Of a stretch of 64,000 bases of DNA, positions 1 through 62,805 are shown one piece after another; within the stretch, counting starts at the first letter, position 1, and each line of letters begins with the position of its first letter. Origin of the DNA: an uncultured delta proteobacterium. GTDB taxonomy: Bacteria; Desulfobacterota; Binatia; DP-6. The notes beneath the pieces are model-generated. The model ran no database searches. It had not been told where the DNA came from and saw only the letters and a program-made list of their open reading frames with translations. The DNA is taken from positions 1,600,001 to 1,664,000 of the forward strand of contig CAWFFN010000009.1 of the NCBI GenBank assembly GCA_963815115.1, written 5' to 3'. The position numbers and the translations under genes were made by a program.

Positions 1-520
1 CGAGGCCCGAGAAGGGCTCGTCACACAGCAGCACGGCGGGGCTGCGGATGATGGCGCGGGCGAGGGCCACGCGCTTCACCATGCCGCCGGAGAGCTCCCC
101 CGGCAGCAGCCCGTCGACGTCGCGCAGGCCCACCGCGTCGAGCCGGTCGTGCACCTCGTCGGCGATCGCCCGCTCGTCGAGGTCGGTGTGCTCGCGCAGC
201 GGGAAGGCGACGTTCTCGAAGACGGTCATGGAGTCGAGAAGGGCGCCACCCTGGAAGAGCATGCCGACCTTCCGCCGGATGCGGAAGAGCTCGCGCTCGG
301 AGCACCGGGTGACGTCCTCGCCATCGACGACGATCCGCCCGACCTGGGGGCGGATCAGCCCGGCGATCAGCCTGAGCAGCGTGCTCTTGCCGCAGCCGCT
401 GCCTCCCAGCACCATGGAGATCCCCCCGACGGGAAAAACACAGGAGAGGTCCGTGAACACCGGCCGATCGCCGAATGCCATGGACACCTGCGAGAGCTCG
501 ACGTGAGCGCCGGACTGCAT
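1..520 (-). CDS. mlaF: ABC transporter ATP-binding protein, MlaF/Mkl-like (3' end outside the window)
   Basis: Manual translation (absent from the ORF track): MQSGAHVELSQVSMAFGDRPVFTDLS...Walker A GGSGCGKST, GMLFQGGALLDSMTVFENVAFPLREH, signature LSGGMVKRVALARA, Walker B LLCDEPFSGL. Confidence 0.85.
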   Translation of the reverse strand, partial: MQSGAHVELSQVSMAFGDRPVFTDLSCVFPVGGISMVLGGSGCGKSTLLRLIAGLIRPQVGRIVVDGEDVTRCSERELFRIRRKVGMLFQGGALLDSMTVFENVAFPLREHTDLDERAIADEVHDRLDAVGLRDVDGLLPGELSGGMVKRVALARAIIRSPAVLLCDEPFSGL

Positions 521-2718: not shown

Positions 2719-2747
2719 GAGATGCCCGGCGCGTCGGACCAGGTCAA
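2719..2747 (-). promoter_or_regulatory. Putative sigma70-type promoter TTGACC-N17-CATCTC
   Basis: Directly upstream of the RBS of the 2197..2697 gene; the same hexamers recur at 36215..36244. Confidence 0.35.
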
Positions 2748-5491
2748 GGTTTTCTGCCGGAGGACGGCGGGAGATGCTGGGATTTCGCGCGGGGGAGCGC
2801 GGTCACGATCCGATTGAGAGCGTCGGGCTCGACCGGCTTCGTGACGTGATGGTCGAATCCGGCGGTCCTCGTCCGCTCCCGGTCTTCCTCCTGGCCGTAT
2901 CCGGTCAGTGCCACCAGGAGGATGTGTTGCAGGCGCGCATCCTGCCGCACGCGGCGGGCGACCTCGTACCCGTCGATGCCCGGGAGACCGATGTCGACGA
3001 GCATGACGTCGGGCGGGGAGGTCCGCGCGAGATCGAGCGCGGTGGCTCCATCGTGGACCGTCCGGACCCGGTGTCCGAGCATCTCCAGCAGCATCGTCAA
3101 GGCCTCGGCGCCGTCCCGGTTGTCCTCCACGACCAGCACGCGCCGGTCACCTCGCTCTGCCGAGCGCTCCTCGGAAGCCGGGGCGGCGGTGCGCTCGACG
3201 CCGGGCGGGAGAACCGGAAGTCGCACGACGAACTCCGCACCCTTTCTGGGCCCGTCGCTCCGGGCCTCGACCCGGCCGCCGTGGAGCTCGACGAGCTGCC
3301 GCACGACGGTGAGCCCGATGCCCAGTCCGCCGTGGGCTCGGGCAACGCCGGGATCCGCCTGCGCGAAGAGGTCGAAGACATGCGGCAGGTGCTCGGGCGC
3401 GATCCCGACACCATTGTCCCGGACGCGCAGCACTGCGTCCCTCCCGTCCCGGGCGACCGTGATCTCGATGCGGCCGCCCGGCGCGGTGTACTTGGCTGCG
3501 TTCGAGATCAGATTCACCACCACCTGCTCGAGCCTCGTCGCGTCCCCTTCGACCTCCAGGCCGTCGGGCGCCGGTGAGAGCGAGAGATGGTGCGCGCGAT
3601 CCTCGACGAGCTGCTGCGTGCTTTCGACGGCTCGCTCGACGATGCTGGCGAAGCGCAGGCGCTGGGTGCGCAGCGTGATCTTCCCATGCGTGATCCGCGC
3701 AACGTCGATCAGGTCGTCGATGAGTTGCGCGAGCTGGTCCGTGCCACGGCGAACGATGTGGAGCGCGCGCTCTCGGCGCGCCGGGTCGAGCGACGCGGCG
3801 ACGGCCGCATTGCGCACTGCCGCCAGCGGATTGCGCAGCTCGTGCCCGAGCATCGCGAGGAACTCGTCCTTCGCCCGATTGGCGGCCTCCGCGTCGCGCC
3901 GCGAGCGACGTTCGGCGTCGTAGAGACGCGCGTTGTCGATCGCGATCGCGGCCTGGGCGGCGAACCCCACGACGACACGCTCCGCGTCCTCGGTGAACAC
4001 CCCGGGCTCGGGATGGCCGAGGAACAGGCCCCCGAACACCTCGCCGGAACGACCGACGAGCGGTACCGCGAGATAGCTCGTCACCGGAAGGTGACCCCGC
4101 GGCATCCCGTGGTGCGGAGGGTTCTTGCCGTAGCGCGGGTCCTTCCTGACGTCGTCGAGCCGCACCACGCGTTCTCCCGCGAACGTCGTCGCGAACAGGG
4201 CGGTGTTGCGCGGCATCCCGAGCTTCTCGAACGCTTCGCGCGGCGCCCCGGAGAGCGCGTAGAGCAGATAGTGGCCGCCTTGATCGTCGATGGCGTTGTA
4301 GAAGAACGCGCCGAACTTCGCGTGGGTCAGGCTCGTGGCGGCGTCGGTGATGGCCTGGAGCAGCTTCTGGGGGTCCAGCTCCGCGGAGAGCGCCTGGCCG
4401 ATCTGGTTGAGGGTGGCGACCATCGCGCGGCTGTGAAGAAGCGCCTCTTCGGACCGCTTCCGTTCCGTCACGTCGCGCGCGATCTTCGAGACCCCCACCA
4501 CGTCGCCGGACGCATCCCGGATCGGTGAGAGCGTCAGCGAGACGTGGATGCGCCGTCCGTCCTTGCACACGCGCCGGGTCTCGAAGTGCTCGATCCGCTC
4601 GCCGCGACGGAGCGCCGCGAGGGTCGTCTCGAGCTCGTCCGCGCCGTCGGCGGGGAGAAGACGCGCGATCGGGTGCCCGATCATCTCCTCGGGCGCGTAG
4701 CCGAAGAGGTGCTCGGCAGCGCGGTTCCAGCTCGTGACGACGCCGTCCAGGGTCTGGCTGATGATGGCATCGTTGGACGACTCCACGATGGCCGCGAGGC
4801 GCGTCCGCTCCGCGATCTCGGCGTCGAGCGCGCTGGCCCTCTGCTGGAGCCGGACGATCTCGCGCAGCCGCTCGTCCGTGCTGTCCAGCGCCGTATAGCT
4901 CTCGGCGGGGATCACGTGGGAGTGCGCTCCACAGATCTCGAGTACGCGAGAGCCGTCGCCGCCGTCGTGGAGGGTGGTCAACGGGTAGGCGCACAGGAGC
5001 GACAGCGGCAGGCTGGCGACGAGGTGGTTCCAGAGCTCCTCGAGGCGGAGGGCTGCGTCCGTCCTCCCCTCTGCCCATAGCAGCGCCACCATCTCTCCGA
5101 AGGCACGGACGCGAGCATGGCGCTCCGCGGCTCGCTCGACCACCTCTCCGACGACGTCGGCGAAGCGCGTCACATCCGGCGCCTCGTCGACCATGACCTT
5201 CGCCAGGGTCTCGGCGGCGTCCAGCTCGACGTAGCGGCCTTGCTCGCGGGCGACTGCCAGCTGCACCCCGCGCGCAGCGATGCTCTCCCGGAGACCCTCG
5301 AGATGCGGCCTCGTCGCGATGACGACGGCCGCCTCGCCAGCTCCGAGGCCGGCACCGATGAATCGTGCCGCCTCCGCCAGAAGGAAGGAGTCGCGCTCGT
5401 AGAACTGAACCAGATGCGTGCGGCGGTCGACGTCGGGCGCGCTCGAGCCCGCAATGCCCGTCGCAGGTTCCGAGACCGGACCGGTACTCAT
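2744..5491 (-). CDS. Hybrid sensor histidine kinase (MEDS-PAS-GAF-HisKA-HATPase-REC)
   Basis: MEDS HLVQFY...RAFGEMVALLW...LEELWN...LLCAYP; PAS SWNRAAEHLFGY; GAF; H-box FLAMLGHELRNPL; G-boxes DNGVGI and GGLGIGL; C-terminal receiver PDVMLVDIGLPGIDG. Probable start MSTGP at 5491 (ORF extends to 5545). Confidence 0.93.
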   Translation of the reverse strand: MSTGPVSEPATGIAGSSAPDVDRRTHLVQFYERDSFLLAEAARFIGAGLGAGEAAVVIATRPHLEGLRESIAARGVQLAVAREQGRYVELDAAETLAKVMVDEAPDVTRFADVVGEVVERAAERHARVRAFGEMVALLWAEGRTDAALRLEELWNHLVASLPLSLLCAYPLTTLHDGGDGSRVLEICGAHSHVIPAESYTALDSTDERLREIVRLQQRASALDAEIAERTRLAAIVESSNDAIISQTLDGVVTSWNRAAEHLFGYAPEEMIGHPIARLLPADGADELETTLAALRRGERIEHFETRRVCKDGRRIHVSLTLSPIRDASGDVVGVSKIARDVTERKRSEEALLHSRAMVATLNQIGQALSAELDPQKLLQAITDAATSLTHAKFGAFFYNAIDDQGGHYLLYALSGAPREAFEKLGMPRNTALFATTFAGERVVRLDDVRKDPRYGKNPPHHGMPRGHLPVTSYLAVPLVGRSGEVFGGLFLGHPEPGVFTEDAERVVVGFAAQAAIAIDNARLYDAERRSRRDAEAANRAKDEFLAMLGHELRNPLAAVRNAAVAASLDPARRERALHIVRRGTDQLAQLIDDLIDVARITHGKITLRTQRLRFASIVERAVESTQQLVEDRAHHLSLSPAPDGLEVEGDATRLEQVVVNLISNAAKYTAPGGRIEITVARDGRDAVLRVRDNGVGIAPEHLPHVFDLFAQADPGVARAHGGLGIGLTVVRQLVELHGGRVEARSDGPRKGAEFVVRLPVLPPGVERTAAPASEERSAERGDRRVLVVEDNRDGAEALTMLLEMLGHRVRTVHDGATALDLARTSPPDVMLVDIGLPGIDGYEVARRVRQDARLQHILLVALTGYGQEEDRERTRTAGFDHHVTKPVEPDALNRIVTALPRAKSQHLPPSSGRKP

Positions 5492-5690
5492 GGAGTGTCC
5501 CTCGGTGAGCGGAACCCGGATACCCGTTCGGTCCGAGGCTGACAAGGCTCATCAATGCGCCGTTGCCGGCCCGCACGCAACGCGTCGAGGGTCCCGGCCC
5601 GGATCGCGGGGAGGCGCGGCGAGCGACGTCGGAGAAGGACGAGCTCGCCGCGTAGCTTAGGACGGCTTGGCAGCGAGTGCCTCTTTTTCC

Positions 5691-5720
5691 TTGACAGTCG
5701 GCGATCTGGGCGAGTAGTCA
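5691..5720 (+). promoter_or_regulatory. Putative sigma70 promoter of the CREF-protein operon
   Basis: Perfect TTGACA at 5691, 18-nt spacer, TAGTCA at 5715, preceded by a T-tract, 55 nt before the ATG at 5775. Confidence 0.45.
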
Positions 5721-5774
5721 CACCGGCTACGAAGATCCGGGGCCAGCAGGCCCAGGCATACGAAAGGCAGGCAA

Positions 5775-6464
5775 ATGCGATCCCCGTGCACTACTCGACG
5801 ACGTCACGGCGCCCGGCGCGGGACGCGGGCGTTGCGCGCGGGCGGCGCGCTGATCGTGGCTCTTGCGCTTGCGGCCGGGATGCGCGCGTCGCCGGCGCTG
5901 GCGCAGTGTTCGGACACCGACGCCGACGGCGTGTGTGACGACGTCGACAACTGTCCGGCACTCGCGAACCCGGATCAGGCCGATCTCGACGGCGACGACG
6001 TCGGGGACGCGTGCGATCCGAGCGACGCCGAGCTGAACGTCACCAAGCTCGAGATGGCGCGCGACTCGAGCGCCAACAACGACTCGAGCCTGTACCGCGC
6101 GAAGGGCGACTTCTTCACGAACCCGCCCACCGACACGCTGACCGCCGTCGCCGGCCTCACGGTGCACGTCGCGGACGCCCTCGGGACGGACTCGACGCAG
6201 GTGTGGACGCCCGCGGACTGCGCGAAATCGGCGCCCGGAAAGATCATCTGCGTCAGTGCCGACAGGAACGCCAAGCTCTCCGCCAAGGCCATCAAGGCCA
6301 CGCCGGCGGTGTTCAAGTTCACGCTGAAGGTCCGCCGCGTGGGGTTCACGGGGCCGTTCGACGGGCCGGTCCAGGTGACGCTGAGCAACGGCGCCATCGA
6401 CCGCTTCGGCATCATCATGGACTGCCGGGTGAGCAACAAGGGGCTCACCTGCCGCGAGTTCTGA
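5775..6464 (+). CDS. Secreted thrombospondin type-3 repeat protein with CREF C-terminal domain (paralog 1)
   Basis: Signal peptide ending ASPALA-Q; TSP3 repeat DTDADGVCDDVDNCPALANPDQADLDGDDVGDACD; ends LTCREF. Confidence 0.85.
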   Translation: MRSPCTTRRRHGARRGTRALRAGGALIVALALAAGMRASPALAQCSDTDADGVCDDVDNCPALANPDQADLDGDDVGDACDPSDAELNVTKLEMARDSSANNDSSLYRAKGDFFTNPPTDTLTAVAGLTVHVADALGTDSTQVWTPADCAKSAPGKIICVSADRNAKLSAKAIKATPAVFKFTLKVRRVGFTGPFDGPVQVTLSNGAIDRFGIIMDCRVSNKGLTCREF

Positions 6465-6495
6465 GCGCCGTCAGCACGCGGCCTCTGGGGGAGCC

Positions 6496-7266
6496 ATGCG
6501 CAACGAGATCGCACGTCGACTGACCGGCCGCGGCGGAGCACGTCTGGTCGCGGGAGCCGTCCTGCTCGGCAGCTTGCTCGTGATCGCCGCCGTCTCCGTG
6601 GCCATCGCCTGCACCACCGACGCGCAGTGCGATGACGGCGACGCCTGCAACGGCGTCGAGAGCTGCAACACCAGCACCATGATGTGCGAGCCGGGCGTTC
6701 CCGCCGGCCCCGACGCGGACGGCGACGGGATCTGCGACGCCGGCGACAACTGCCCGACCGTCGCCAACCCGGGCCAGGCAAACCTCGACGGCGACGCGCT
6801 CGGCGATGTCTGCGACGATGCCGACGCCACCCTGAGCCCCACCAAGATCACCCTGCGGCGCAACAACGGCGGTCAGGGCGACAAGAGCGCGGCCAAGGGC
6901 AAGGGCTTCTTCGTCACCGCGCCGCCGGGAGACACCTTCAACGGCGCCGCCGGCTTCCAGATCCGCATCCAGGACGGCATCGGCCTCGACGTCACGCGCG
7001 GCTTCAGCGCCGCCGAGTGCGTGGCCGCCGGCACGAAGGTGAAGTGCAAGAGCACGGACAAGTCGCGCAAGGCGTCGCTCAAGGGCCTCGCGGCGACGCC
7101 GCAGGTGATCCAGTTCAGCTACGTGTTCAAGCGACTCGGCCTCGCGGGACCATTCAACGGGCCGGTGTCGGTGACCCTCACGCAGAACGGCAGCGCGATC
7201 GACCGCGCGGGAGTCGCGACGGACTGCCTGATCAAGCTGCTCGGGCTCGCCTGCCGCGAGTTCTAG
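6496..7266 (+). CDS. Secreted thrombospondin type-3 repeat protein with CREF C-terminal domain (paralog 2)
   Basis: GGGGAG RBS; signal peptide; Cys repeat CDDGDACNGVESC; TSP3 DADGDGICDAGDNCPTVANPGQANLDGDALGDVCD; ends LACREF. Confidence 0.85.
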   Translation: MRNEIARRLTGRGGARLVAGAVLLGSLLVIAAVSVAIACTTDAQCDDGDACNGVESCNTSTMMCEPGVPAGPDADGDGICDAGDNCPTVANPGQANLDGDALGDVCDDADATLSPTKITLRRNNGGQGDKSAAKGKGFFVTAPPGDTFNGAAGFQIRIQDGIGLDVTRGFSAAECVAAGTKVKCKSTDKSRKASLKGLAATPQVIQFSYVFKRLGLAGPFNGPVSVTLTQNGSAIDRAGVATDCLIKLLGLACREF

Positions 7267-7290
7267 CCGTCGTCGACGAAGGAGATCCCC

Positions 7291-9261
7291 ATGCGCGGCA
7301 CTTGCCGGACCGCCCTCGCAGTCGCCCTCGCCGCCCTCGCCCTCGCGGGCGCGAGCCGGCCGGCTTTCGCCACCCACTTCCGCTACAGCCACCTCAGCTG
7401 GTCCGTGGTCAGCGGCAGGACGGTCGAGTTCACCCTGCAGAGCAGCTGGCGGCGCAACGACACGCCGAGCTTCAATCCGTGCGTGAACCCGACCACCAAC
7501 GTCGTCGTTCCGTGCACCGGTGGCGACGGGCTGCCCGCACCGGGCGACATCATCCGTGAGGACATCGGCGACACGCGACTCGATTTCGGCGACGGCAGCC
7601 CCACCGTCGGCTCGGGGACCAGCGGCGGCCTGTTCTATCTCGTCACCTCGGTCGACCCGGCGAACAACTGGCTCTTCGGCCTGGCGCTCGACACGGCCGC
7701 GCTGCCGGTCATCGACACCACGATCCGGCACACCTACGCGGCGGCCGGCACCTACACGGCGTTCATCGCGTCGTGCTGCCGGATCCAGGCCAACGCACCG
7801 CCGAACGCCCACATCAACAATCCCGAGTTCGACTACCAGGTGCAGGCCGTGGTGGAGCTGGGCCAGGACAACGCCTCGGCGACGACGGCGCTGCCGCCGA
7901 TCGTCACCTGCGAGCAGAACAGCGTATGCTCGTTCCTGGTGCCGGCCACCGATCCCGACGGCGACACGCTCACCTTCCGCCTCGCGACGCCGTCCGAGGC
8001 CGACGGCGGGGCCTTCAAGCAGCCCGGCCCCCCGCAGGCGACGAACGGCGCCAGCATCAACCCGACGACGGGGATCTACACCTGGGACACCACCGGCGCC
8101 ACGCTCGGACCGGTGGGGCTGAACACGCTCTACTCGACCCAGGTGGTGATCGAGGAGCGCGACGCGATGAACAACGTCAAGGGCCGCGTCGCCGTCGACT
8201 TCTTCATCCAGCTCGTGCCGCACGTGAACCAGCCGCCCGTGTTCAGCAGCCCGGCCTGCAACTCCACCCTGACCCCGTCCACGGGCGTGCCCTTCTCCTT
8301 CAACGTGCAGGCCTCCGATGCCGACTCGGGCGACGTGGTCACCCTGAACGCCGCCGGCCTGCCCGCGGGCGCCAGCATGACCCCGCCGCTACCGACCACG
8401 GGCAATCCCGTGAGCAGCCTCTTCGGCTGGACGCCGCTGATCTCGCAGGCGGGCAACTACATCGTCACCTTCACGGCCACCGACCAGGCGTTGCAGCAGG
8501 CGCTGTGCTCGATCACCCTGGTGGTCAACTCGCAGTGCGGCGACGGCAATCTCGACCCGGGCGAGCAGTGTGACCCGGGCCCCGACGCCGCCAACGACTG
8601 CTGCACGATCGACTGCCAGTTCGAGACCGACGGGACGTCCTGCGGTGGGTCTCCGGTGTGCGGTGGGCCGAGCTCGTGTGCCTCCGGCGTCTGTACGCCC
8701 GGAGCCGGCGGGACCGACAGCGACGGCGACGGCGTGATCGACTGTCAGGACAACTGCCCGACGATCGCCAACCCGGGCCAGTCGGACATCGACGGGGACG
8801 GCATCGGCGACGTCTGTGACGCCGAGGACGCTCCGCTCACGGTGAACCGGCTCAAGATGAAGGGTAACGCGGCCAAGGGCTCCACGGTCGGCAAGGGCAG
8901 CTTCGTGTCGCTCCTGCCTGCCGATGCGCTCACCTCGGCGCAGGGCATCACCTTCCGCGTGCGCGACCGCCTCGAGTCGGACGTGCAGCACTCCTGGGCG
9001 AGCGCCGAGTGCGCCGTCACGCCGTCGAGCGGCCGCATCAAGTGCCTGAGCGCCGACAAGCGCTTCCGCGCGGACCTGAAGCCGGTGCCGAAGACGCCCA
9101 ACGCCGTGCGCTGGGCGTTCAAGATGAAGAAGCTCTCGCTGGTCGCGCCCTTCAAGTCGCCGATCAGCGTGACGTTGACCTACGGTGCGGGAATCGACCG
9201 CGTCGGGGTCATCCACGACTGCGCGGCGAAGAACGCGTCGATCGTCTGCCGCGAGTTCTGA
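7291..9261 (+). CDS. Large secreted protein: adhesin/Ig-like passenger, Cys-rich repeat, TSP3 repeat and CREF C-terminal domain (paralog 3)
   Basis: AAGGAG RBS; signal peptide (RPAFA-THF); LDFGDG, SCCR, ATDPDGDTLTF and NQPPVF cadherin/Ig-like motifs; CGDGNLDPGEQCD; TSP3; ends IVCREF. Confidence 0.88.
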   Translation: MRGTCRTALAVALAALALAGASRPAFATHFRYSHLSWSVVSGRTVEFTLQSSWRRNDTPSFNPCVNPTTNVVVPCTGGDGLPAPGDIIREDIGDTRLDFGDGSPTVGSGTSGGLFYLVTSVDPANNWLFGLALDTAALPVIDTTIRHTYAAAGTYTAFIASCCRIQANAPPNAHINNPEFDYQVQAVVELGQDNASATTALPPIVTCEQNSVCSFLVPATDPDGDTLTFRLATPSEADGGAFKQPGPPQATNGASINPTTGIYTWDTTGATLGPVGLNTLYSTQVVIEERDAMNNVKGRVAVDFFIQLVPHVNQPPVFSSPACNSTLTPSTGVPFSFNVQASDADSGDVVTLNAAGLPAGASMTPPLPTTGNPVSSLFGWTPLISQAGNYIVTFTATDQALQQALCSITLVVNSQCGDGNLDPGEQCDPGPDAANDCCTIDCQFETDGTSCGGSPVCGGPSSCASGVCTPGAGGTDSDGDGVIDCQDNCPTIANPGQSDIDGDGIGDVCDAEDAPLTVNRLKMKGNAAKGSTVGKGSFVSLLPADALTSAQGITFRVRDRLESDVQHSWASAECAVTPSSGRIKCLSADKRFRADLKPVPKTPNAVRWAFKMKKLSLVAPFKSPISVTLTYGAGIDRVGVIHDCAAKNASIVCREF

Positions 9262-9275
9262 GGGGGACAACCGTC

Positions 9276-9303
9276 GGCCCGGCGTCCTTCGTGGCGCCGG
9301 GTC
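9276..9303. terminator. GC-rich hairpin between convergent genes
   Basis: GGCCCGGCGTC-CTTCGT-GGCGCCGGGTC, between the stops at 9261 (+) and 9320 (-). Confidence 0.45.
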
Positions 9304-9319
9304 GCACGGGCCGATCGGC

Positions 9320-9511
9320 TCAGGAGCCGAGAGCGGGTTGGGGGACCGCCGCGCGCAGCATCACGGCGTTGAAGAGAGCCACCCAGGCGCCGTGGTCGAT
9401 GTAGCCTTCCAGGTGGTCCTCGCTCCAGCCGAAGGCGAGCTGGGGATCCTCCCAGACCTCGACCAGCTGTCCCTGGAGGAGGAGCCGGCGTCGCGGTGTG
9501 CTCGGGGTCAT
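9320..9511 (-). CDS. Small hypothetical protein, 63 aa
   Basis: MTPSTPRRRLLLQGQLVEVWEDPQLAFGWSEDHLEGYIDHGAWVALFNAVML...; GAGGA RBS; 10 nt after the previous gene. Confidence 0.6.
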   Translation of the reverse strand: MTPSTPRRRLLLQGQLVEVWEDPQLAFGWSEDHLEGYIDHGAWVALFNAVMLRAAVPQPALGS

Positions 9512-9521
9512 CGGCGCGTCC

Positions 9522-9707
9522 TCAGGCGGCCGCGACGCGCGAGGGGCGAACGTCGCCCATCTCGAACTTGGCGCCACGGAAGTTGCCGCACAGCCTGACG
9601 GTTCCGGAGTTGACGAGGTGGACCACCGTCGCGACGACCTCCGAGTCGGTGCGGGCGTATGCGGAGACGGCGGTCACGAGATCGAGCAGCGTGCATTCGG
9701 CTGGCAT
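9522..9707 (-). CDS. Small hypothetical protein, 61 aa
   Basis: MPAECTLLDLVTAVSAYARTDSEVVATVVHLVNSGTVRLCGNFRG...; AGAGGA RBS; sigma54 promoter upstream. Confidence 0.7.
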   Translation of the reverse strand: MPAECTLLDLVTAVSAYARTDSEVVATVVHLVNSGTVRLCGNFRGAKFEMGDVRPSRVAAA

Positions 9708-24449: not shown

Positions 24450-24553
24450 AGGCCCCGGCGGCGACGGCGCGCGCGCGAGCAAGGCGAGGCACGCAGCGCT
24501 GCCGCCGCCGGGGACTGCTCACGGCGTCACGCGGCCGCGGGACGGCGGTGTCG

Positions 24554-25795
24554 TCACCATCGGTCCGTGACGTCGGGCAGGCTGGTCGACGTCGTGCTCG
24601 ACGAGGAGGACGAGGAGGTCGAGGGTGCGGAGGACGACGAGCTGCTCGACGACGAGGACGAGCTGCTCGAGGAGGACGAGGACGACGAGGACGACGAGGA
24701 GCTCGATGAGGACGACGAGCTGCTCGACGAGGAGGACGAGGAGGAGCTGCTCGACGGCGCGGTCGTCGTGGAGACCGTGCTGGAGGTGCTGGGCTCGCTG
24801 GTGGACGTCGTCGTCGTGCTGGTGGTCGTCGTGGTCGGGCAGCACACCCCGGTGTTGTTCCGGTCCGAGCTGACGACGTCGCCCAGGTAGTGACCGCTGA
24901 GCGTGTTCGCATGGCCGAGCTTGAGGCTCCCGGCGAGCGAGCAGGCGTCGACCGTGAAGCGGCCGGAGCGGCCGAAGCGGATGTCACCCCGCTCGGTGAC
25001 GATGCGCAGGCCGCCACAGCCCGTGCCCACATCGGCCTCGTTGTTGAAGTACGCGTTGCCCCTGCCGGGGATCAGGACGGTCGCGGCCCCGTTGCTCGCG
25101 AACCGGACGTTCTTTCCCGCCCGGATGCCGCAGGCGATGCTCGTCCCACCGTCGATGATCACGGTGGCGCGGTCGTGGACGACGATCATCCCGTAGGTGC
25201 CCGCGGGCAGGTCGCACTGGCCGTTGCCGGTGACGGCGTCGTCCGCGCCGCAGTCCTGCCCTTCCTGCACCACCACGGGGTGGGCCGGGTTGCACGCGGG
25301 GAGCGGCAGCGTGACGCCGCAGGCGGAGGCGAGGTCGTCGAGATCGGGCACGCAGTCCGTGGAGCAGCTCGGCGCGCCGTCTCCGTCGAGGTCACCCACG
25401 ATCGGCGGTGCGAAGGGGGTGCTGCAATCGGCTGCGGGGCCGTCGTTCGCGATCATCGAGCACCCCGGATCGCAGCTCGCGGAGCCGTTGCGGAAGACCT
25501 CGAAGAACGAGTCGTTGGCGCAGAGCTGATCGCTGGCGAGCTGGCCCGGAGGGGCGATGCTGGCGTTCTTGAGCCGCAGCGTCCCGCAGCGGCTCGGGCC
25601 GCCGGGGCTCGGGCAGTTCACCCCGATGCTGCAGCCCGGTGCGGCGATCGCGAAATTTTTGAGATTGACACTCCGGACCCCCAGCACGAGGTAATGTGAT
25701 GGGTCACGATCGAGCTGTTGGAACGCCGCCGCGGCGCCGGCGAAGCAGGCGGCAGAGGCCAGGAGGAGGAGAAGGCGAAGGCCAGACGGGGACAT
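24554..25795 (-). CDS. Secreted Cys-rich protein with a long Ser/Thr low-complexity C-terminus
   Basis: AAGGAG RBS, signal peptide, many Cys, beta-helix-like LPAGTYG segment, poly-Thr/Ser tail. Confidence 0.75.
   Translation of the reverse strand: MSPSGLRLLLLLASAACFAGAAAAFQQLDRDPSHYLVLGVRSVNLKNFAIAAPGCSIGVNCPSPGGPSRCGTLRLKNASIAPPGQLASDQLCANDSFFEVFRNGSASCDPGCSMIANDGPAADCSTPFAPPIVGDLDGDGAPSCSTDCVPDLDDLASACGVTLPLPACNPAHPVVVQEGQDCGADDAVTGNGQCDLPAGTYGMIVVHDRATVIIDGGTSIACGIRAGKNVRFASNGAATVLIPGRGNAYFNNEADVGTGCGGLRIVTERGDIRFGRSGRFTVDACSLAGSLKLGHANTLSGHYLGDVVSSDRNNTGVCCPTTTTTSTTTTSTSEPSTSSTVSTTTAPSSSSSSSSSSSSSSSSSSSSSSSSSSSSSSSSSSSSSSSSSSAPSTSSSSSSSTTSTSLPDVTDRW
24590..24835 (-). repeat. Low-complexity codon repeat (TCG/TCC/AGC/ACC) encoding poly-Ser/Thr
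   Basis: Plus strand shows recurring GAC GAG GAG and GAGCTGCTCGAC units. Confidence 0.8.
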
Positions 25796-34659: not shown

Positions 34660-36192
34660 CTAGTTGGTGCGGAGGCTGTTCACCAGCGCCGAGAGCTCGT
34701 CGAGCCGCGCCCCGACGTCCGCCTTGCACTCCGGCGTGATCCGGCCGTTCTTGGCGAGGCGGCCGGCCTGGGCCTGGGCCGCTCCGATGAGATTCGCCGA
34801 CTGCTTGAGGAGCGGATTGGGGTTCTTCGCCTGGGTCGCCCGCTGGACCCAGCTGCGGATCCGCTTGATCTTCTCCCGCAGGTTCAGCTTCTGCGCGATG
34901 TTGACGCCCGGGCAGGGCAGATCGTCGACCAGCTGGGTGGCGACGCACTGCGTTCCGGTGACGCCGGCCGGAGCCGCGTTCACGCACTTCCCGCCCACGC
35001 AGGCCTCCGTCGTGCACGGGAGCGTGTCGGCGGCGCACTGCGCGTCCGAGGTGCACTCGAGCCTGCAGGTGGCGGAGCAGCCATCGCCGCTCACCTTGTT
35101 GCCGTCGTCGCACTCCTCGTTCGGGTCGAGGTGGCCGTTGCCGCACTCGAGCCGGCAGGTGGCCGAACAGCCGTCGCCGCTGACGTTGTTGCCGTCGTCA
35201 CACTCCTCGCCCGGGGAGACGGCGCCGTTACCGCAGCCGGTGATCCGGCAGTTCTGATCGCAACCGTCCCCCGAGATCTGGTTGCCGTCGTCGCACTGCT
35301 CGCCCGGGTTCAGCTGTCCGTTGCCGCAGGTGCTCTGGCTGCTCTGGCACGTGGAGGAGCAGCCGTCGCCGTTCACGGTGTTGCCGTCATCGCACTGCTC
35401 ACCCGGGTCGACGATGCCGTTGCCGCATCCGGTGACCTTGCAATTGTTGTCGCAGCCGTCGCCGTTGACCTTGTTGCCGTCGTCGCACTGCTCGCCCGGG
35501 TCGACCTTGCCGTTGCCGCACTCGAGCTGGCAGGAGGAGGAGCACCCGTCGCCGTTCTGGTCGTTGCCGTCGTCGCACGCCTCGCCCTGGTCGACGTGCC
35601 CGTTGCCGCACAGGCTCGTCATGACCACCTCGACCGAGATGAACTGGTACGTCCCGTGCGTCACCGGATCCGTCACCGTGAAGTCCGGCGTGGTCACGGC
35701 GCCGGGATCGAAGCTGAAGATCACCTTGTCGAAGCTGCCCGACCCCCCGTTGACGGTCTCGGTCTGCCCCGCCGGCACGTCGCCGGAGTGGATGATGAAG
35801 GTGTCCTGGTCGCCCTCGCCGATGAGCGTGTCGGCTCCCGGGCCGCCGATGATGACGTCCTTGCCGCTGCCGCCGTTGATCACGTCGTCGCCGGGTCCGC
35901 CGTCGAGGAGGTCGTCGTCACCCTCGCCCTGGAGCTTGTCGTTGCCCGGCCCGCCGAACAGCTGATCCTTGAAGCTGCCGCCGATGATGCAATCGCTGCC
36001 GCCGTTGCCGTGCAGGATGTCCTGACCGCCGTTGCCGGTGATGCGGTCGTCCTGGTCCGTCCCGTCGATGACGTCGTTGGCGCTCGTCCCCGAGGCCGTC
36101 ACCCCCGTCGGACACGTGATCTGGGCATGCCCCCGGGCGGCAAAGCCAAGGACAACCAGTGCTAGCAGTGCGGCTCTCGTCATCGCGATCAT
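34660..36192 (-). CDS. Secreted protein with RTX-like Ca-binding repeats, six myxobacterial Cys-rich (DUF4215-type) repeats and a basic helical C-terminal domain
   Basis: GGAGGAG RBS; signal peptide; [18 protein letters not shown] nonapeptides; six CGNGxxxxGExCDDGNxxxGDGC repeats. Confidence 0.88.
35055..35611 (-). repeat. Six tandem ~90-100-bp coding repeats (Cys-rich DUF4215-type)
   Basis: Recurring TTGCCGTCGTCGCACT / CCGTTGCCGCA on the plus strand, in frame. Confidence 0.85.
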
Positions 36193-50932: not shown

Positions 50933-53900
50933 TCAGGGCACGAAGAGCCCCCGGTTGGTCGCATCGTGCCGTGCCTGCGGCCAGAACCTGGCATCGGGGT
51001 CGCCGCGGGCGCGCCAGACCCACAAGGTGCCTTCGCGCGTCGACACTGCGACCACCGGCCGGTTGCCGATCCGGCCGACCGCGGGAGTGGCGATGATCCA
51101 GCCGCCGGTGAACTTCGGCCAGCCGGGCGCCTCGGTACCCGTCGCGTCCATCGCGTGCACGAGGTAGCCGCCGCTGCCGATCACCATCTCGGCCTGGGCG
51201 TCGCCGCTCACGTCGGCGATCGCGGCGCTGCCGAAGAACACCACGTCGTCGAGCAGGCGCGGGAACGCGGGCAGGAACTGCCCCGTCGCGACGTTCCAGG
51301 CCTCCACGTGGCTGTCGTGCGGGAGCTGCTGGGCGGGGATGTTGGTGTCGGCCAGGCGACCGAATCCCGCGCCCGGCGCGACGTACACCATCGCGCCGCC
51401 CGGTCCGATGGGCGCGAAGCTGCCGGCTCCGAGCCCCGGCACCGACGGCGCGTCGCCGGACGGTGTGTCCGGACCGAATGCGGCGCCGTCGGTCGGGAGC
51501 GTCACGGGCAGCCCGTCCGGGCCCGTGCCGTAGAACGAGGAGCCGTCGGCGCGCAGGATGTACGCGGGACCGACGACGCCGAAGATGCCGACCTCGAGCG
51601 AGCCGTCGCCGTCGACGTCGGCGAGCACCGGAGAGCCGGGCACGCCCTCGATCCAGGGCAGCAGCTCGGGGGCGACGATCCCGATGCGCACCGGCCAGCC
51701 CGGCAGCTCGGGACCCGCGGGATTGCCCATCCCGAGCGGATCGGCGTTCCCGGCCGCCGGGATGGCATGCAGGCGGCCGTTGCCGCCGTCGAGCAGGCCG
51801 AGCGCCTGGAACGTGCCGATCGACGTGTTGCCGGCGGATGAGAAGTTCACCGGCTCGCGGTACTCCTCGTTGCTGCCGACCACGACGACGGGCCTGCCGT
51901 CACCCCGCAGCGCGCCGACCGCGGGTGTCGACACCAGCTTCGTCCCCTGGAGCGCGACGGCCTGTCCGCCGACGGTCTTCGGCACCACGTGGTCGCTCAC
52001 CGGATCGATCGACGCCATCTGCGTGCGATCGACCACCAGCACCGGCCATCCCGGTTGCGTGCTGCCGTCCGCGCGCCAGACGTAGACGTGGCGGTCCATG
52101 CCCGCGGCGATGATCTCGGGCCGATCGTCCCCGTCGAGGTCGGCGAGGACGGGCGCCGCGAGCAGCCCGCGCTGGAGTCGGTTGAAGCGGTCGCGCGCGC
52201 TCCGGGCGGAGAAGCGGGCCTCCGTTCGCACCGGGAACGCGGGACGCCGCGTGCCGTCCTGCTCCCAGACGTAGAGCTTGCCGGCGAGCGAGCCGGCGAC
52301 GACCTCGGTGCGCCGGTCCCCGTCGATGTCAGCGGCCGCGGCGCCGCCGCCGAACGACTCGTACCACGCCGTCGGCAGCGCGCCGCTCACGAAGGCGCGC
52401 GATCCCGTGTGCAGCGGCAGCGGGTCGGTGTGCACCGGCCAGCCCGGCAGCGAGTGTCCGTTGGCGCGCAGCGCCAGGATGGTGCCGTCGGCGGTCGGGA
52501 CGATCAGGGCCTGCCGCTTTGGCCGCCGCTCCGTGCCGAGCGGCAGCTTGCCACGCAGCCGGGCGAAGAGCGGCGACGGCTCGCCGCTGCCGCCGATGGC
52601 GAGCGGGAAGCCCCGCCTGAGGTCGTCGTCGTGGTGCAGGTAGAGGGTGCGCCGTGCCTCGCCGCGCCGGCCGCCAGCGTCGGTGACGCGGAGGCGCAGC
52701 GTCACCGTGAACGCGTCCGGCGTGTCGTCGGGCGACGGCGTCCCGCTCGGCGCCGTCTGCGGGACGCCCTCGGGATCGATCATGCAGCGCATCGCGGTAT
52801 CGCGGATCGACCACGACGCCAGCGTGCCGGGCCCGGTGGGCGCGCTCAGGCCGCTCGCCGAGGCGATCGTCGTGAAGCGGTCCTCCGTCGGCTGCACGCC
52901 GCAGCCGGCGGCGAGCTCCCAGCCGTAGCTCGCGGCGCGCGTCGCGGCGGCCGCGCCGGTGACGGTGACCACGGGCGTGCGCACGGGGTCGAGCGTCTGC
53001 CACCAGTCGGGCGCGAGCAGGTCCGCTTCCGGCGGCACCGCGTCGCTCGCCACCGCCTGCACGGCCTGACGGGCATTGGCGCGGCCGGCGCCGAAGTACT
53101 CGTCCCAGCCGGGCTGCGAGGCGTAGCGCATGGAGTCGATGCCGAACGCCGACAGGATGAAGGAGACCGTCCGGTCGCCGCTGAAGTCGATGTCGTCGGC
53201 GGTCATGGTGAGGAGCTGCGCCACCTCGTCCGCCGACAGCGGGTGCACGCCGCCGGTCGGATCGGTGCGGCGCGGCTGGAGCGTGCCGGCGTCGACCCGG
53301 TCGAGCGCCGCGGAGATGATCAATCCTGCGATGCCGGAGCCCCGGCCGGTGGCCTCCGAGGAGCACGACGAGGACTCGATCGCGACGGCGATGTTGCCGC
53401 CGTAGTTCGTGCAGCCGTTGAGATAGAGGTAGGAGTGCGGGCTCATCGTGAAGCCCGACTGGTCGGCGAACCGGGTCACCGAGTTCACCGTGATGGTGTG
53501 GCGGTCGGCGGCCGGCCAGTTGTGGTGGAAGCTCTCCTCGTCGGCCGCCGAGGCGATGACCGGCACGTCGCTCTGCCAGGCGTACTCGATGGCCGCGCGC
53601 GCGAAGGACGTGTTGTTCACCGTCCCGAGCGCCTCCTGCACGATGTGGGCGCCGCTGTCGACCGCGAAGACGACGCCCTGCGCGAAGTTGTTCGAGTCGG
53701 CGATGAAGCTGTCGCCGACGCGCACCGGCAGGACGCGGCAGTTGGGACACGTTCCGAGGTCGCCGCCGTTGTCGGCCTCCGCCGTGGAATCCTCCGCCTC
53801 GCCCGTGCCGTGGCCGTACGACACCTCGTCGAACGGGTCGTTGTCGTCGTCCAGGAAGTTCCAGCCCGCGATGTCGTCGACGTAGCCGTTGCCGTCGCCG

Positions 53901-54502
53901 TCCGTGCCGTCGCTGAAGGCGCGGATCACGTCCTGCGGGTCGAGCAGGCCGTTGCCGTTCGCGTCCTGCACCCTCGCGTCGGCGGCGTAGTCGGTGACGT
54001 CGAACACGCCGTCGTCGTTCAGGTCGTAGGGATCGGGGTTCAGGAAGGCGCCGCCGGCGGACGACTCGGGCTTGGTGTGACCCGCGGCATCACGCGGCAG
54101 CGGCAGCTCGCCGCGGTTCAGATGCACCTTGCGGGCGAGGTCGTGCATCGCGCCCGTGTCGTCCCACTTGATGCCGGAGTCGAGCACGGCGATCAGGACG
54201 TCGGGGCGGCCGGTCGTCACCTGCCAGGCCAGATCGACGCTCATCCCGCGCACGCCGAACAGCTCGGCGGCGCTCCCGTCGATCGCCGGGTCGCCGGTCT
54301 GGTCGCTGGTGAGCTTCCACTCGGCGCCGCCGGTGAAGTCGATCGGCCGCACGGGCGGCGACGTCACCGGCAGGCGGAGGTAGGACGCATAGTTCTGCGG
54401 GGGCGTGCCGGGCGGGGGCGCCGGGTACGGGAACGTGGCCTGGGCGGCGCGGGCGGCGAGGACGACCGCGATGGACGCGACGGCGAGAGCGAAGCGTGGC
54501 AT
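50933..54502 (-). CDS. Secreted S8 subtilase-like protein with FG-GAP/VCBS repeats
   Basis: Signal peptide; IAVLDSG (Asp), YGHGTG (His), SSCSSEATG (Ser region); DGDGNGYVDDIAGWNF; repeated ADLDGD...PGWP. Confidence 0.88.
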   Translation of the reverse strand: MPRFALAVASIAVVLAARAAQATFPYPAPPPGTPPQNYASYLRLPVTSPPVRPIDFTGGAEWKLTSDQTGDPAIDGSAAELFGVRGMSVDLAWQVTTGRPDVLIAVLDSGIKWDDTGAMHDLARKVHLNRGELPLPRDAAGHTKPESSAGGAFLNPDPYDLNDDGVFDVTDYAADARVQDANGNGLLDPQDVIRAFSDGTDGDGNGYVDDIAGWNFLDDDNDPFDEVSYGHGTGEAEDSTAEADNGGDLGTCPNCRVLPVRVGDSFIADSNNFAQGVVFAVDSGAHIVQEALGTVNNTSFARAAIEYAWQSDVPVIASAADEESFHHNWPAADRHTITVNSVTRFADQSGFTMSPHSYLYLNGCTNYGGNIAVAIESSSCSSEATGRGSGIAGLIISAALDRVDAGTLQPRRTDPTGGVHPLSADEVAQLLTMTADDIDFSGDRTVSFILSAFGIDSMRYASQPGWDEYFGAGRANARQAVQAVASDAVPPEADLLAPDWWQTLDPVRTPVVTVTGAAAATRAASYGWELAAGCGVQPTEDRFTTIASASGLSAPTGPGTLASWSIRDTAMRCMIDPEGVPQTAPSGTPSPDDTPDAFTVTLRLRVTDAGGRRGEARRTLYLHHDDDLRRGFPLAIGGSGEPSPLFARLRGKLPLGTERRPKRQALIVPTADGTILALRANGHSLPGWPVHTDPLPLHTGSRAFVSGALPTAWYESFGGGAAAADIDGDRRTEVVAGSLAGKLYVWEQDGTRRPAFPVRTEARFSARSARDRFNRLQRGLLAAPVLADLDGDDRPEIIAAGMDRHVYVWRADGSTQPGWPVLVVDRTQMASIDPVSDHVVPKTVGGQAVALQGTKLVSTPAVGALRGDGRPVVVVGSNEEYREPVNFSSAGNTSIGTFQALGLLDGGNGRLHAIPAAGNADPLGMGNPAGPELPGWPVRIGIVAPELLPWIEGVPGSPVLADVDGDGSLEVGIFGVVGPAYILRADGSSFYGTGPDGLPVTLPTDGAAFGPDTPSGDAPSVPGLGAGSFAPIGPGGAMVYVAPGAGFGRLADTNIPAQQLPHDSHVEAWNVATGQFLPAFPRLLDDVVFFGSAAIADVSGDAQAEMVIGSGGYLVHAMDATGTEAPGWPKFTGGWIIATPAVGRIGNRPVVAVSTREGTLWVWRARGDPDARFWPQARHDATNRGLFVP

Positions 54503-54565
54503 GCGCCGAGTCGAGCGCACTCGCCGAAAGCTGTCAATGATAATCGTGCATGGCGCGATTCGAAG

Positions 54566-61383: not shown

Positions 61384-62805
61384 TCACTTCTTCTTCTGGT
61401 TGCCCACGCGCGTCTGCGGCAGCTCGCGACTCTGCTTGCGGAAGTAGCAGATCTCCACCAGCGTCGGCCACAGCTCGAGGGCGCTGCGGATGTCGCCGAC
61501 CACGTCGTCCACGATCCGGCTGAGGTTCTGCTGGAAGAAGTCGGCCTCGAAGCCGTAGAAGGCCTTCTCCAGGTTGCAGGCGAACCGCTCCAGAACGTCG
61601 CGCCGCTCCGCGTTGGCCGTGGCCGCGGCGGCCGCGAGGGCGCGGCGGTGGATGGCGGTGATGCGCTCGAGGATCTGCTCGCTGTCCTGCGCCGTCACCT
61701 CGCCCTCGTAGCCGAACTCGATGCCCAGGTCGTCCACCCGCTGGCAGCTCGCCTTGATCTTCCGCTTGAGCAGGTTCGCCACCTCCTCGTTGAAGACCTC
61801 GAACGGCAGCGGGTGCCGCATGTAGTTGTTCTTGATGTGGGTCTGCGCCGCGTCCACGTGCGCCGCGACCATGCCGGGCTGCTGGATCCACAAGCGGTAG
61901 ATGTAATCCTCGAAGCGCAGCCGGGTGGGGAAGAACGGCGGCAGCCCGACGCTGTTGTCGTAGCCGGCCACGCCGCAGTCCATCCGCCAGTTCCGGTTCG
62001 TGAGCGCCGGGCGGAAGTTCACCAGGACGTACACGTCGTTCACGTGGTCGAGGTTGGTCTGGTTCTCGTCGTCGAGAAACAGCTCCACGAAGTACAGGGC
62101 GTCGATGTCGCTGGTCCCGCTGCGGAAGGTCTGGGCCATCTTGACGGTCGCGCTGCGCGCGACCTTCCCCTTCTGGAGGATCAGCGAGTTCTCGCGCACC
62201 AGCCCGAGGTTCGCGTTGGTCTCCAGGTCCATCGCGCTGTCGCTGACGAGCTCCCCCTTGGCGAAGTTCTCGGGGACGTCGGCGACCTTCTTGCCGATGA
62301 CGTCGCCGAACGACGAGAGGATGTCGAACGGCCGGCGGGTGTAGCCGTTCACGGTCGCCTTGAGCAGCTTGCCCCGGCTGATCTCGTCGGCCGCCAGCGA
62401 TTCCGGGCTGTCCTCGATGAGCCCGTGCGGCCGCATGTCGTCGTCGGCGCTGACCACGTGGCTGCCGAGGGTGTAGATCAGCGCGAAGTTCCGGTTGCCG
62501 CCGTAGCTCGGCCGGAAGAGGTTGCGCACCGCGGCCTCGAGCTTCCGGTCCCGCAGCCGCCGGTTGAGCAGGGAGCAAAACGCCTCCTTCTCTCGGGGCC
62601 CGACGTAGAAGAGCTCGCTCCACGTGCGGGTCTTCTCCAGCAACGGGTAGTACTTCTCGTGGTTGGCCACGCTCGAGTCGTCGAAGACGATGATGCGCGG
62701 CGAGTGGCCGTTGTTCCAGAAATTCTCGTCGTACGTTCCCACCGTCTCGCACACGTCGCGGAGACGGTAGGTCGGGATGACGAAGATCAGCTCGTGGTCT
62801 GGCAT
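61384..62805 (-). CDS. Uncharacterised GT-A-fold (DxD) protein downstream of kdpC
   Basis: FVIPTYR, IIVFDDS, SYGGNRN, SADDD, LPPFFP..RFED; strong coding bias. Confidence 0.8.
   Translation of the reverse strand: MPDHELIFVIPTYRLRDVCETVGTYDENFWNNGHSPRIIVFDDSSVANHEKYYPLLEKTRTWSELFYVGPREKEAFCSLLNRRLRDRKLEAAVRNLFRPSYGGNRNFALIYTLGSHVVSADDDMRPHGLIEDSPESLAADEISRGKLLKATVNGYTRRPFDILSSFGDVIGKKVADVPENFAKGELVSDSAMDLETNANLGLVRENSLILQKGKVARSATVKMAQTFRSGTSDIDALYFVELFLDDENQTNLDHVNDVYVLVNFRPALTNRNWRMDCGVAGYDNSVGLPPFFPTRLRFEDYIYRLWIQQPGMVAAHVDAAQTHIKNNYMRHPLPFEVFNEEVANLLKRKIKASCQRVDDLGIEFGYEGEVTAQDSEQILERITAIHRRALAAAAATANAERRDVLERFACNLEKAFYGFEADFFQQNLSRIVDDVVGDIRSALELWPTLVEICYFRKQSRELPQTRVGNQKKK

Follow-up and report, generated by a model that had tools for sequence, protein, structure and literature searches.

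We examined a 64,000-nt stretch of an uncultured Binatia genome (contig CAWFFN010000009.1; GC about 70%), hereafter the window, in which three adjacent genes at 5775..9261 encode secreted-looking proteins, p1, p2 and p3, that share a C-terminal domain (CTD). The open reading frames (ORFs) agree with the initial annotation, which had described three genes of these lengths in the same orientation on the forward strand (Table 1), separated by 31 nt (gene 1/gene 2) and 24 nt (gene 2/gene 3) and all ending in CREF followed by a stop codon. GGGGGAG precedes the ATG of gene 2, and AAGGAG that of gene 3. Overlapping ORFs are numerous in this GC-rich sequence, and a GC content at third codon positions (GC3) of 0.91–0.95 singles out these three as coding. 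Each N-terminus reads as a Sec-type signal peptide, with a basic n-region, a hydrophobic core and an AxA-type site, as had been proposed from the same sequence. Two other readings of the N-termini were rejected: an A-x-A-C lipoprotein junction, as p1 has Q at position −1 and p3 lacks the Cys, and export by twin-arginine translocation (Tat), as the twin-arginine consensus is absent from orthologues.

Each protein carries a calcium-binding thrombospondin type-3 (TSP3) repeat, in keeping with the initial annotation. The motif DxDxDGxxDxxDNCPxxxNxxQxDxDxDxxGDxCD is plain in p1, p2 and p3, column for column; the cut-off of the Pfam model TSP_3 (PF02412, 25 bits) is reached by p3 only (29.9 bits), with p2 (24.4) and p1 (21.6) just short. 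Matches to the NCBIfam models MtsC and Omp28-related selenoprotein are confined to this TSP3 part of the proteins. p1 and p2 consist of barely more than TSP3 plus CTD. In p3, He_PIG scores 27.4 bits against a cut-off of 24, SIBA-E_N, Big_9 and PKD stay below their cut-offs, and the NCBIfam model myxo_disulf_rpt reaches 15.9 bits against 20.8. Given its immunoglobulin (Ig)-like region and Cys-rich acidic repeat, the earlier label adhesin-like is a fair description of p3.

Table 1. Features of the three-gene locus and its borders (nucleotide positions refer to the window, amino acid positions to each protein).
Feature	Nucleotides	Amino acids	Strand	Remarks
Gene 1 (p1)	5775–6464	229 aa	+	ORF ends CREF-stop
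Gene 1, putative signal peptide	5775–5903	1–43	+	boundary ALA|QC, read from sequence
Gene 1, TSP3 repeat	5904–6023	44–83	+	
Gene 1, CTD copy 1	6024–6461	84–229 (146 aa)	+	pI 8.8; 4 Cys
Gene 2 (p2)	6496–7266	256 aa	+	ORF ends CREF-stop
Gene 2, putative signal peptide		1–38		
Gene 2, short Cys-rich stretch and TSP3 repeat		39–109		
Gene 2, CTD copy 2	6823–7263	110–256 (147 aa)	+	pI 9.9; 4 Cys
Gene 3 (p3)	7291–9261	656 aa	+	ORF ends CREF-stop
Gene 3, putative signal peptide		1–27		
Gene 3, Ig-like/PKD-like/He_PIG region		to about 412		
Gene 3, Cys-rich acidic repeat		about 413–472		
Gene 3, TSP3 repeat		473–512		
Gene 3, CTD copy 3	8827–9258	513–656 (144 aa)	+	pI 10.0; 4 Cys
TTGACA hexamer, promoter-like only	5691–5696		+	upstream of gene 1; no matching −10
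GC-rich inverted repeat CCCGGCG...CGCCGGG	9276–9303		+	15 nt past gene 3 stop; read by eye
Hybrid histidine kinase (MEDS, PAS, GAF, HisKA, HATPase_c, receiver)	2744–5545	933 aa	−	divergent, 229 nt upstream of operon

The CTD directly follows the TSP3 repeat and runs to the stop codon over about 146 aa; the sequence ends in ...GLTCREF and contains no hydrophobic helix. By BLASTP, the copy in p1 is 43% identical to that in p2 (E = 2e-40) and 36% identical to that in p3 (E = 7e-33). An alignment of the three holds 35 invariant columns, including four Cys, KGxF, TP, PFxxPxxVTL, IDRxG, DC and CREF, which bears out the proposal of a homologous C-terminal domain with four aligned Cys and a CREF end. 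Two details of that proposal hold in part. Lys is indeed plentiful (10–13 per copy), but with 8–10 Arg as well and an isoelectric point (pI) of 8.8–10.0 the domain is better called basic than Lys-rich; the supposedly shared DAxLxxxKL fits p1 but is found only loosely in p2 (KI) and p3 (RL). A six-frame hmmsearch of the 64-kb window with a profile of the three copies found no further copy (next best E = 1.1). We also considered gene conversion as the source of the identical CREF ends; we rejected it in view of orthologues at a second locus, described below, that end CREF, CRQF and CKEF.

The profile of the three copies was searched against 1.84 billion representative proteins (clusters at 50% identity). 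The domain extends well past three recent duplicates, with 522 clusters at E ≤ 1e-3, 307 at E ≤ 1e-10 and 22 at E ≤ 1e-30. The family traits given here come from the best 150 of the 522 matches. In 148 of these 150 the CTD ends 0–6 residues from the protein C-terminus, close to the constant C-terminal placement that was to count in favour of the initial proposal; the two exceptions are P0142, with 137 residues beyond the domain, and P0254, with 17. Four Cys columns are near-invariant (148/149, 148/149, 148/148 and 143/143), followed in conservation by G28, D51, P111, P115 and R128, and exactly four Cys are present in 114 of 127 complete terminal CTDs. The last Cys is trailed by 1–4 residues in 125 of these 127 and by 3 residues in 79, the first of them being R in 75 and K in 22 (R or K, 97/127). 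Such a short, constant tail suggests selection on the position of the C-terminus.

The conserved terminal CxxF or aromatic residue put forward in the initial annotation proved to be a trait of this subgroup only. The last protein residue among the 150 is F in 36, P in 34, L in 23, R in 15 and Y in 1, and CREF closes 20 of them. An analogy with the beta-signal of the beta-barrel assembly machinery (BAM), also raised at the outset, falls because the terminal aromatic residue is limited to this subgroup; moreover, the CTD model is a soluble sandwich, not a membrane barrel.

Charge divides these proteins into two parts. The complete CTDs have a median pI of 9.57, with pI > 8 in 122 of 127, and the N-terminal remainder has pI < 6 in 77 of the 78 proteins with at least 150 residues upstream of the CTD. 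By a crude test, 76 of 100 M-started representatives have a signal-peptide-like N-terminus. The named relatives (P0007 and P0273) are all proteins of Binatia metagenome-assembled genomes (MAGs). The Atlas yielded only clusters labelled 'hypothetical protein', at recognition values below the reliable range; such members as had a classification, few in number, belonged mainly to Binatota and Planctomycetota. Word-based searching for longer proteins with the CTD alignment gave a single match (P0276) from 8000 scored candidates, and such searching gave only six p3 orthologues with the CTD region of p3.

The domain sits on varied cargo. We scanned 72 of the 79 representatives of at least 290 aa with Pfam at E ≤ 1e-5, seven being left out by a residue limit, and no Pfam match fell on the CTD itself in any of the 72. 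The cargo had no Pfam family at all in 33, Beta_helix and/or NosD in 14, Disintegrin-like repeats in 7, TSP_3 in 5, lactonase-type propellers in 4 and DUF5122 propellers in 3. Rarer cargo included DUF4215, Dicty_CTDC, Calx-beta, PD40, He_PIG, Big_9, DUF11 and an ASH/HYDIN Ig domain, and one representative carried a GT-C_AftD N-terminal domain. With beta-helices, propellers, Cys-rich repeats and Ig-like domains all represented, the notion of a constant C-terminal module on diverse cargo is upheld.

The junction between cargo and CTD is itself patterned. In the 114 representatives that have 40 or more residues ahead of the CTD, the 70-residue stretch preceding it looked TSP3-like (68), Cys-rich (23) or like neither (23). 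A strict TSP3 motif was found in 54 of 104 representatives, and in 49 of these 54 the TSP3 Cys lies exactly 4 residues ahead of the CTD start. This fixed 4-residue spacing makes TSP3 and CTD a fixed composite unit in about half of the family. In two further proteins, P0093 and P0113, the TSP3 repeat leads into another kind of C-terminal region, which has Cys close to its end and, in P0113, an LKLxG-type beta pattern; this region may be a second or distantly related terminal domain.

The CTD is absent from curated libraries. Pfam-A and NCBIfam gave nothing at E ≤ 1 on the CTD of p1, p2 or p3, and among 27 CTD-only sequences searched against both at E ≤ 10, where the HMMER filters drop most matches above about E 0.1, no family was found on more than one of the 27. 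A CTD profile search of PDB sequences gave 0 matches at E ≤ 10. Hence the initial view that the domain matches no known family, nor any CTERM or T9SS (type IX secretion system) type, holds for Pfam, NCBIfam and PDB sequences alike. We found no papers on Binatia with thrombospondin or on Binatota with C-terminal and secretion system, and among the papers listed by broader searches, judged by titles and abstract openings, none describes the CTD. Taken together, the CTD family is real, conserved and uncurated; it is strictly terminal and single-copy, and is borne by varied, exported, acidic cargo.

We ran AlphaFold2 on p1 with 47 aligned relatives (pLDDT 87.0 overall, above 90 from about residue 41 to 229) and on CTD copy 1 alone (27 sequences; pLDDT 96.3, pTM 0.88). 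The CTD is predicted to form a 12-strand beta-sandwich over 146 aa, essentially without helix, and in the p1 model the TSP3 segment reaches pLDDT 84–96 together with it. C66/C76 and C134/C143 sit on adjacent hairpin strands of the model, and because of this adjacency they are likely to form two hairpin-closing disulfides. The donor-strand polymerisation that had been raised for testing finds no support in the monomer model: the monomer is complete and confidently predicted, its last hairpin would be closed by the last two Cys, and it gives no sign of the incomplete Ig fold, completed by a strand of the neighbouring subunit, on which such polymerisation depends. Foldseek against the PDB gave no match at E ≤ 1e-3 for either the full-length p1 model or the CTD-only model. 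The top matches to the CTD had E ≥ 8e-3 at 8–12% identity; the best were archaellin sandwich domains (5z1l, TMq 0.47, E = 2e-2; 8rh5, TMq 0.44), with SOD and immunoglobulin domains ranking below. The predicted fold is thus a generic sandwich without a close solved relative. A complex prediction of mature p1 with mature p2 scored 0.00, below the mark and with controls not run, and has no bearing either way.

The three genes also stand together elsewhere. Scanning a genome collection with narrow patterns from the three-sequence alignment gave 52 pattern matches and one confirmed locus, L001, on a Candidatus Binatia MAG contig. L001 holds three genes in the same order, encoding 213, 221 and 663 aa with the respective ends already listed. 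In a quick tree of 85 CTDs, the careful search being unfinished, each window paralog clusters with its own L001 orthologue. SH-aLRT support reaches 100 in the p3 type, which comprises 8 rows, 88 in the p1 type with 17 rows and 83 in the p2 type with 6. The window cluster is flanked by an MFS transporter, the divergent hybrid histidine kinase, YdjC, carbonic anhydrase, and Sel1 and thiolase-like genes, and L001 by an Mla operon, AbgT, and ArsP/Band_7 genes; among the families scanned, no flanking gene family is shared. The three-gene operon is old and portable. Overall, the three genes form a conserved cluster encoding Sec-exported, calcium-binding (TSP3) proteins, each of which ends in a member of the CTD family.

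The scan of neighbouring genes covered the window and the 19-kb L001. No translocon, sortase or peptidase was found linked to either locus, and no T9SS part occurs among the 26 neighbour ORFs scanned in the two. The co-occurrence with a translocon or processing enzyme that the initial annotation had anticipated is thus not seen at these two loci. The hybrid histidine kinase could regulate the operon; L001 has no such neighbour. As for transcription signals, the initial annotation had named a single TTGACA promoter. The hexamer is present, but a consensus promoter scan of 5400–9700 called 0 promoter-like sites because it has no usable −10 hexamer. At the other end, the inverted repeat past gene 3, with a 7–9 bp stem and a 10-nt loop and without a T-run, may mark the end of the operon; a terminator scan called 0 sites, this repeat included.

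Plausible rather than probable, the reading that we tentatively favour is that the CTD is a terminal retention or address module, a cationic domain holding acidic, calcium-binding cargo on an anionic polymer of the envelope or matrix. A CTD-bearing protein would be exported by Sec and would then form its disulfides in the periplasm. The cationic sandwich would bind non-covalently to an anionic envelope or matrix polymer (lipopolysaccharide, capsule or exopolysaccharide), and would thereby hold the acidic cargo on the cell surface or within the matrix. The adhesin-like protein on display would be p3, and p1 and p2 would occupy or organise the same binding sites. Several points weigh against such a module. 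The charge argument, a basic CTD on acidic cargo, is circumstantial, and both binding and surface location are putative. To our knowledge, binding modules are usually neither so strictly confined to the last residues nor single-copy; strict terminal placement in a single copy would be explained no less well by a recognised export signal. In addition, the probable disulfide pairing is read from strand adjacency only, the operon comparison has only two genomic contexts behind it, the family evidence comes from the best 150 of 522 matches, and the taxonomy consists of Binatia records plus the Atlas hints of Binatota and Planctomycetota.

The closest rival to a retention module is an outer-membrane export or sorting signal comparable to the CTD of the T9SS, in which the last hairpin and the free C-terminus would be recognised by a translocon, possibly with cleavage or attachment. 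Strictly terminal, single-copy placement on varied Sec-exported cargo (148/150) and a tail of 1–4 residues past the last Cys (125/127) count in favour of such a signal, and PMC4804311 locates the T9SS signal to the two final strands of an Ig-like sandwich at the C-terminus. Set against this, the CTD has no sequence match to the T9SS CTD or to any sorting-domain model, and its predicted 12 strands over 146 aa compare with 7 strands there. No candidate translocon or sortase adjoins either locus, and of the families scanned none recurs in both sets of flanks; the CTD is missing from other secreted-looking proteins of the window, whose 64 kb contain only the three copies. An export signal of this kind is possible, though rather unlikely. 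Unlikely, too, is its fuller form, in which the CTD would be the cargo signal of a new outer-membrane secretion or attachment pathway of Binatota and neighbouring phyla, an independent analogue of the T9SS CTD with its disulfide-closed last hairpin and short C[R/K]xx tail recognised by a translocon or sortase specific to it, the gene for which would lie elsewhere in the genome.

The remaining accounts do without an export machinery. The CTD might have no targeting role and serve as a folding nucleus or stabilising cap for TSP3 and Cys-rich arrays, or as a ligand-binding effector for external substrates. The 4-residue TSP3–CTD spacing in 49 of 54 strict-motif representatives and the joint modelling of the TSP3 segment with the CTD at pLDDT 84–96 are consistent with a cap, and eukaryotic thrombospondins likewise pair type-3 repeats with a C-terminal sandwich. 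We regard it as quite unlikely, given that in 23 of 114 representatives the 70 residues ahead of the CTD contain no TSP3 and no Cys-rich segment and that the consistent basic charge and the short tail past the last Cys would be left unexplained. Alternatively, p1–p3 might be structural subunits whose CTDs mediate assembly into a homo- or hetero-polymer, be it pilus-like, S-layer-like or a fibre of the matrix, with p1 and p2 as major subunits and p3 as tip or adhesin. The retention of all three paralogs side by side and in the same order in two diverged genomes, with a separate orthologue for each, would suit this, as would the almost bare TSP3-plus-CTD build of p1 and p2 and the archaellin domains at the top of the weak Foldseek list. 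The archaellin matches are not significant, however, none reaching E ≤ 1e-3; the predicted fold is complete and closed, with a C-terminal hairpin that Cys would tie and no missing strand or N-terminal extension evident; and the cargo of most family members is large and either enzyme-like or a propeller, which is easier to reconcile with a tag than with a polymer subunit. Polymerisation therefore strikes us as very improbable.

The window holds other features apart from this locus. On the reverse strand, 34660–36192 encodes a 510-aa protein that combines RTX nonapeptide repeats with six DUF4215 Cys-rich repeats and starts like a signal peptide, another calcium-binding secreted protein without the CTD. 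Also without it is a 1195-aa subtilase (Peptidase_S8; 50933–54520, reverse strand) with FG-GAP repeats and a signal-peptide-like start. A 473-aa ORF at 61384–62805 (reverse strand) matches nothing in Pfam at E ≤ 1e-3, closes with a run of Lys and has a composition unusual for the window, with a GC content of 0.38 at second codon positions (GC2) and a GC3 of 0.97. At 24519–24890, two low-complexity ORFs overlap on opposite strands, the forward frame consisting of runs of D, E and L. The whole 64-kb window contains no tRNA or tmRNA gene and no Rfam family at gathering score.

Soils and sediments abound in Binatia and related uncultured phyla, and we know of no account of how they display or release their many Cys-rich, calcium-binding surface proteins. 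A family of several hundred clusters that is in no curated library marks a subset of the secretome in metagenomes and could serve phylogenetic profiling for partner machinery. Should the CTD prove to be a true tag, it could be put to use in surface display; even as nothing more than a binding module, it would deserve curation as a new domain family.

Comparison with known systems gives partial likenesses on several sides. Archaellin and other Ig-like sandwich domains are the nearest structural neighbours of the CTD, by matches that are not significant; unlike archaellins, the proteins described here have predicted Sec signal peptides, not class III ones. The thrombospondin signature domain (1ux6) offers the same arrangement of a calcium-binding TSP3 fused to a C-terminal, disulfide-bearing beta-sandwich. 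Pfam TSP_C matched neither the three proteins nor the 27 CTD-only sequences. Foldseek retrieved 1ux6 with the full-length p1 model only (E = 1.3e-2, TM 0.16/0.11), which probably reflects the modelled TSP3 segment, because 1ux6 is absent from the matches listed for the CTD-only search.

The PEP-CTERM, MYXO-CTERM and GlyGly-CTERM systems use a short motif, a transmembrane helix and a basic tail, and are processed by exosortase, rhombosortase or the like. They share with the CTD a constant C-terminal element on variable secreted cargo in similar environmental lineages. The CTD differs from them as a predicted 146-aa soluble sandwich with no transmembrane helix.

The T9SS CTD, a seven-strand Ig-like sandwich at the C-terminus with its signal in the last two strands (PMC4804311), is removed by PorU and is under about 100 aa, against 12 predicted strands over about 146 aa here. 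Its models (Por_Secre_tail and related) matched neither the three proteins at E ≤ 1 nor the 27 CTDs at E ≤ 10. The present domain further differs in its four invariant Cys and strong basic charge, and in its known hosts, which are Binatia, not Bacteroidota, with no T9SS genes among the neighbour ORFs scanned. What the two have in common is a folded beta-sandwich, as modelled here, that sits at the extreme C-terminus of varied Sec-exported cargo, once per protein.

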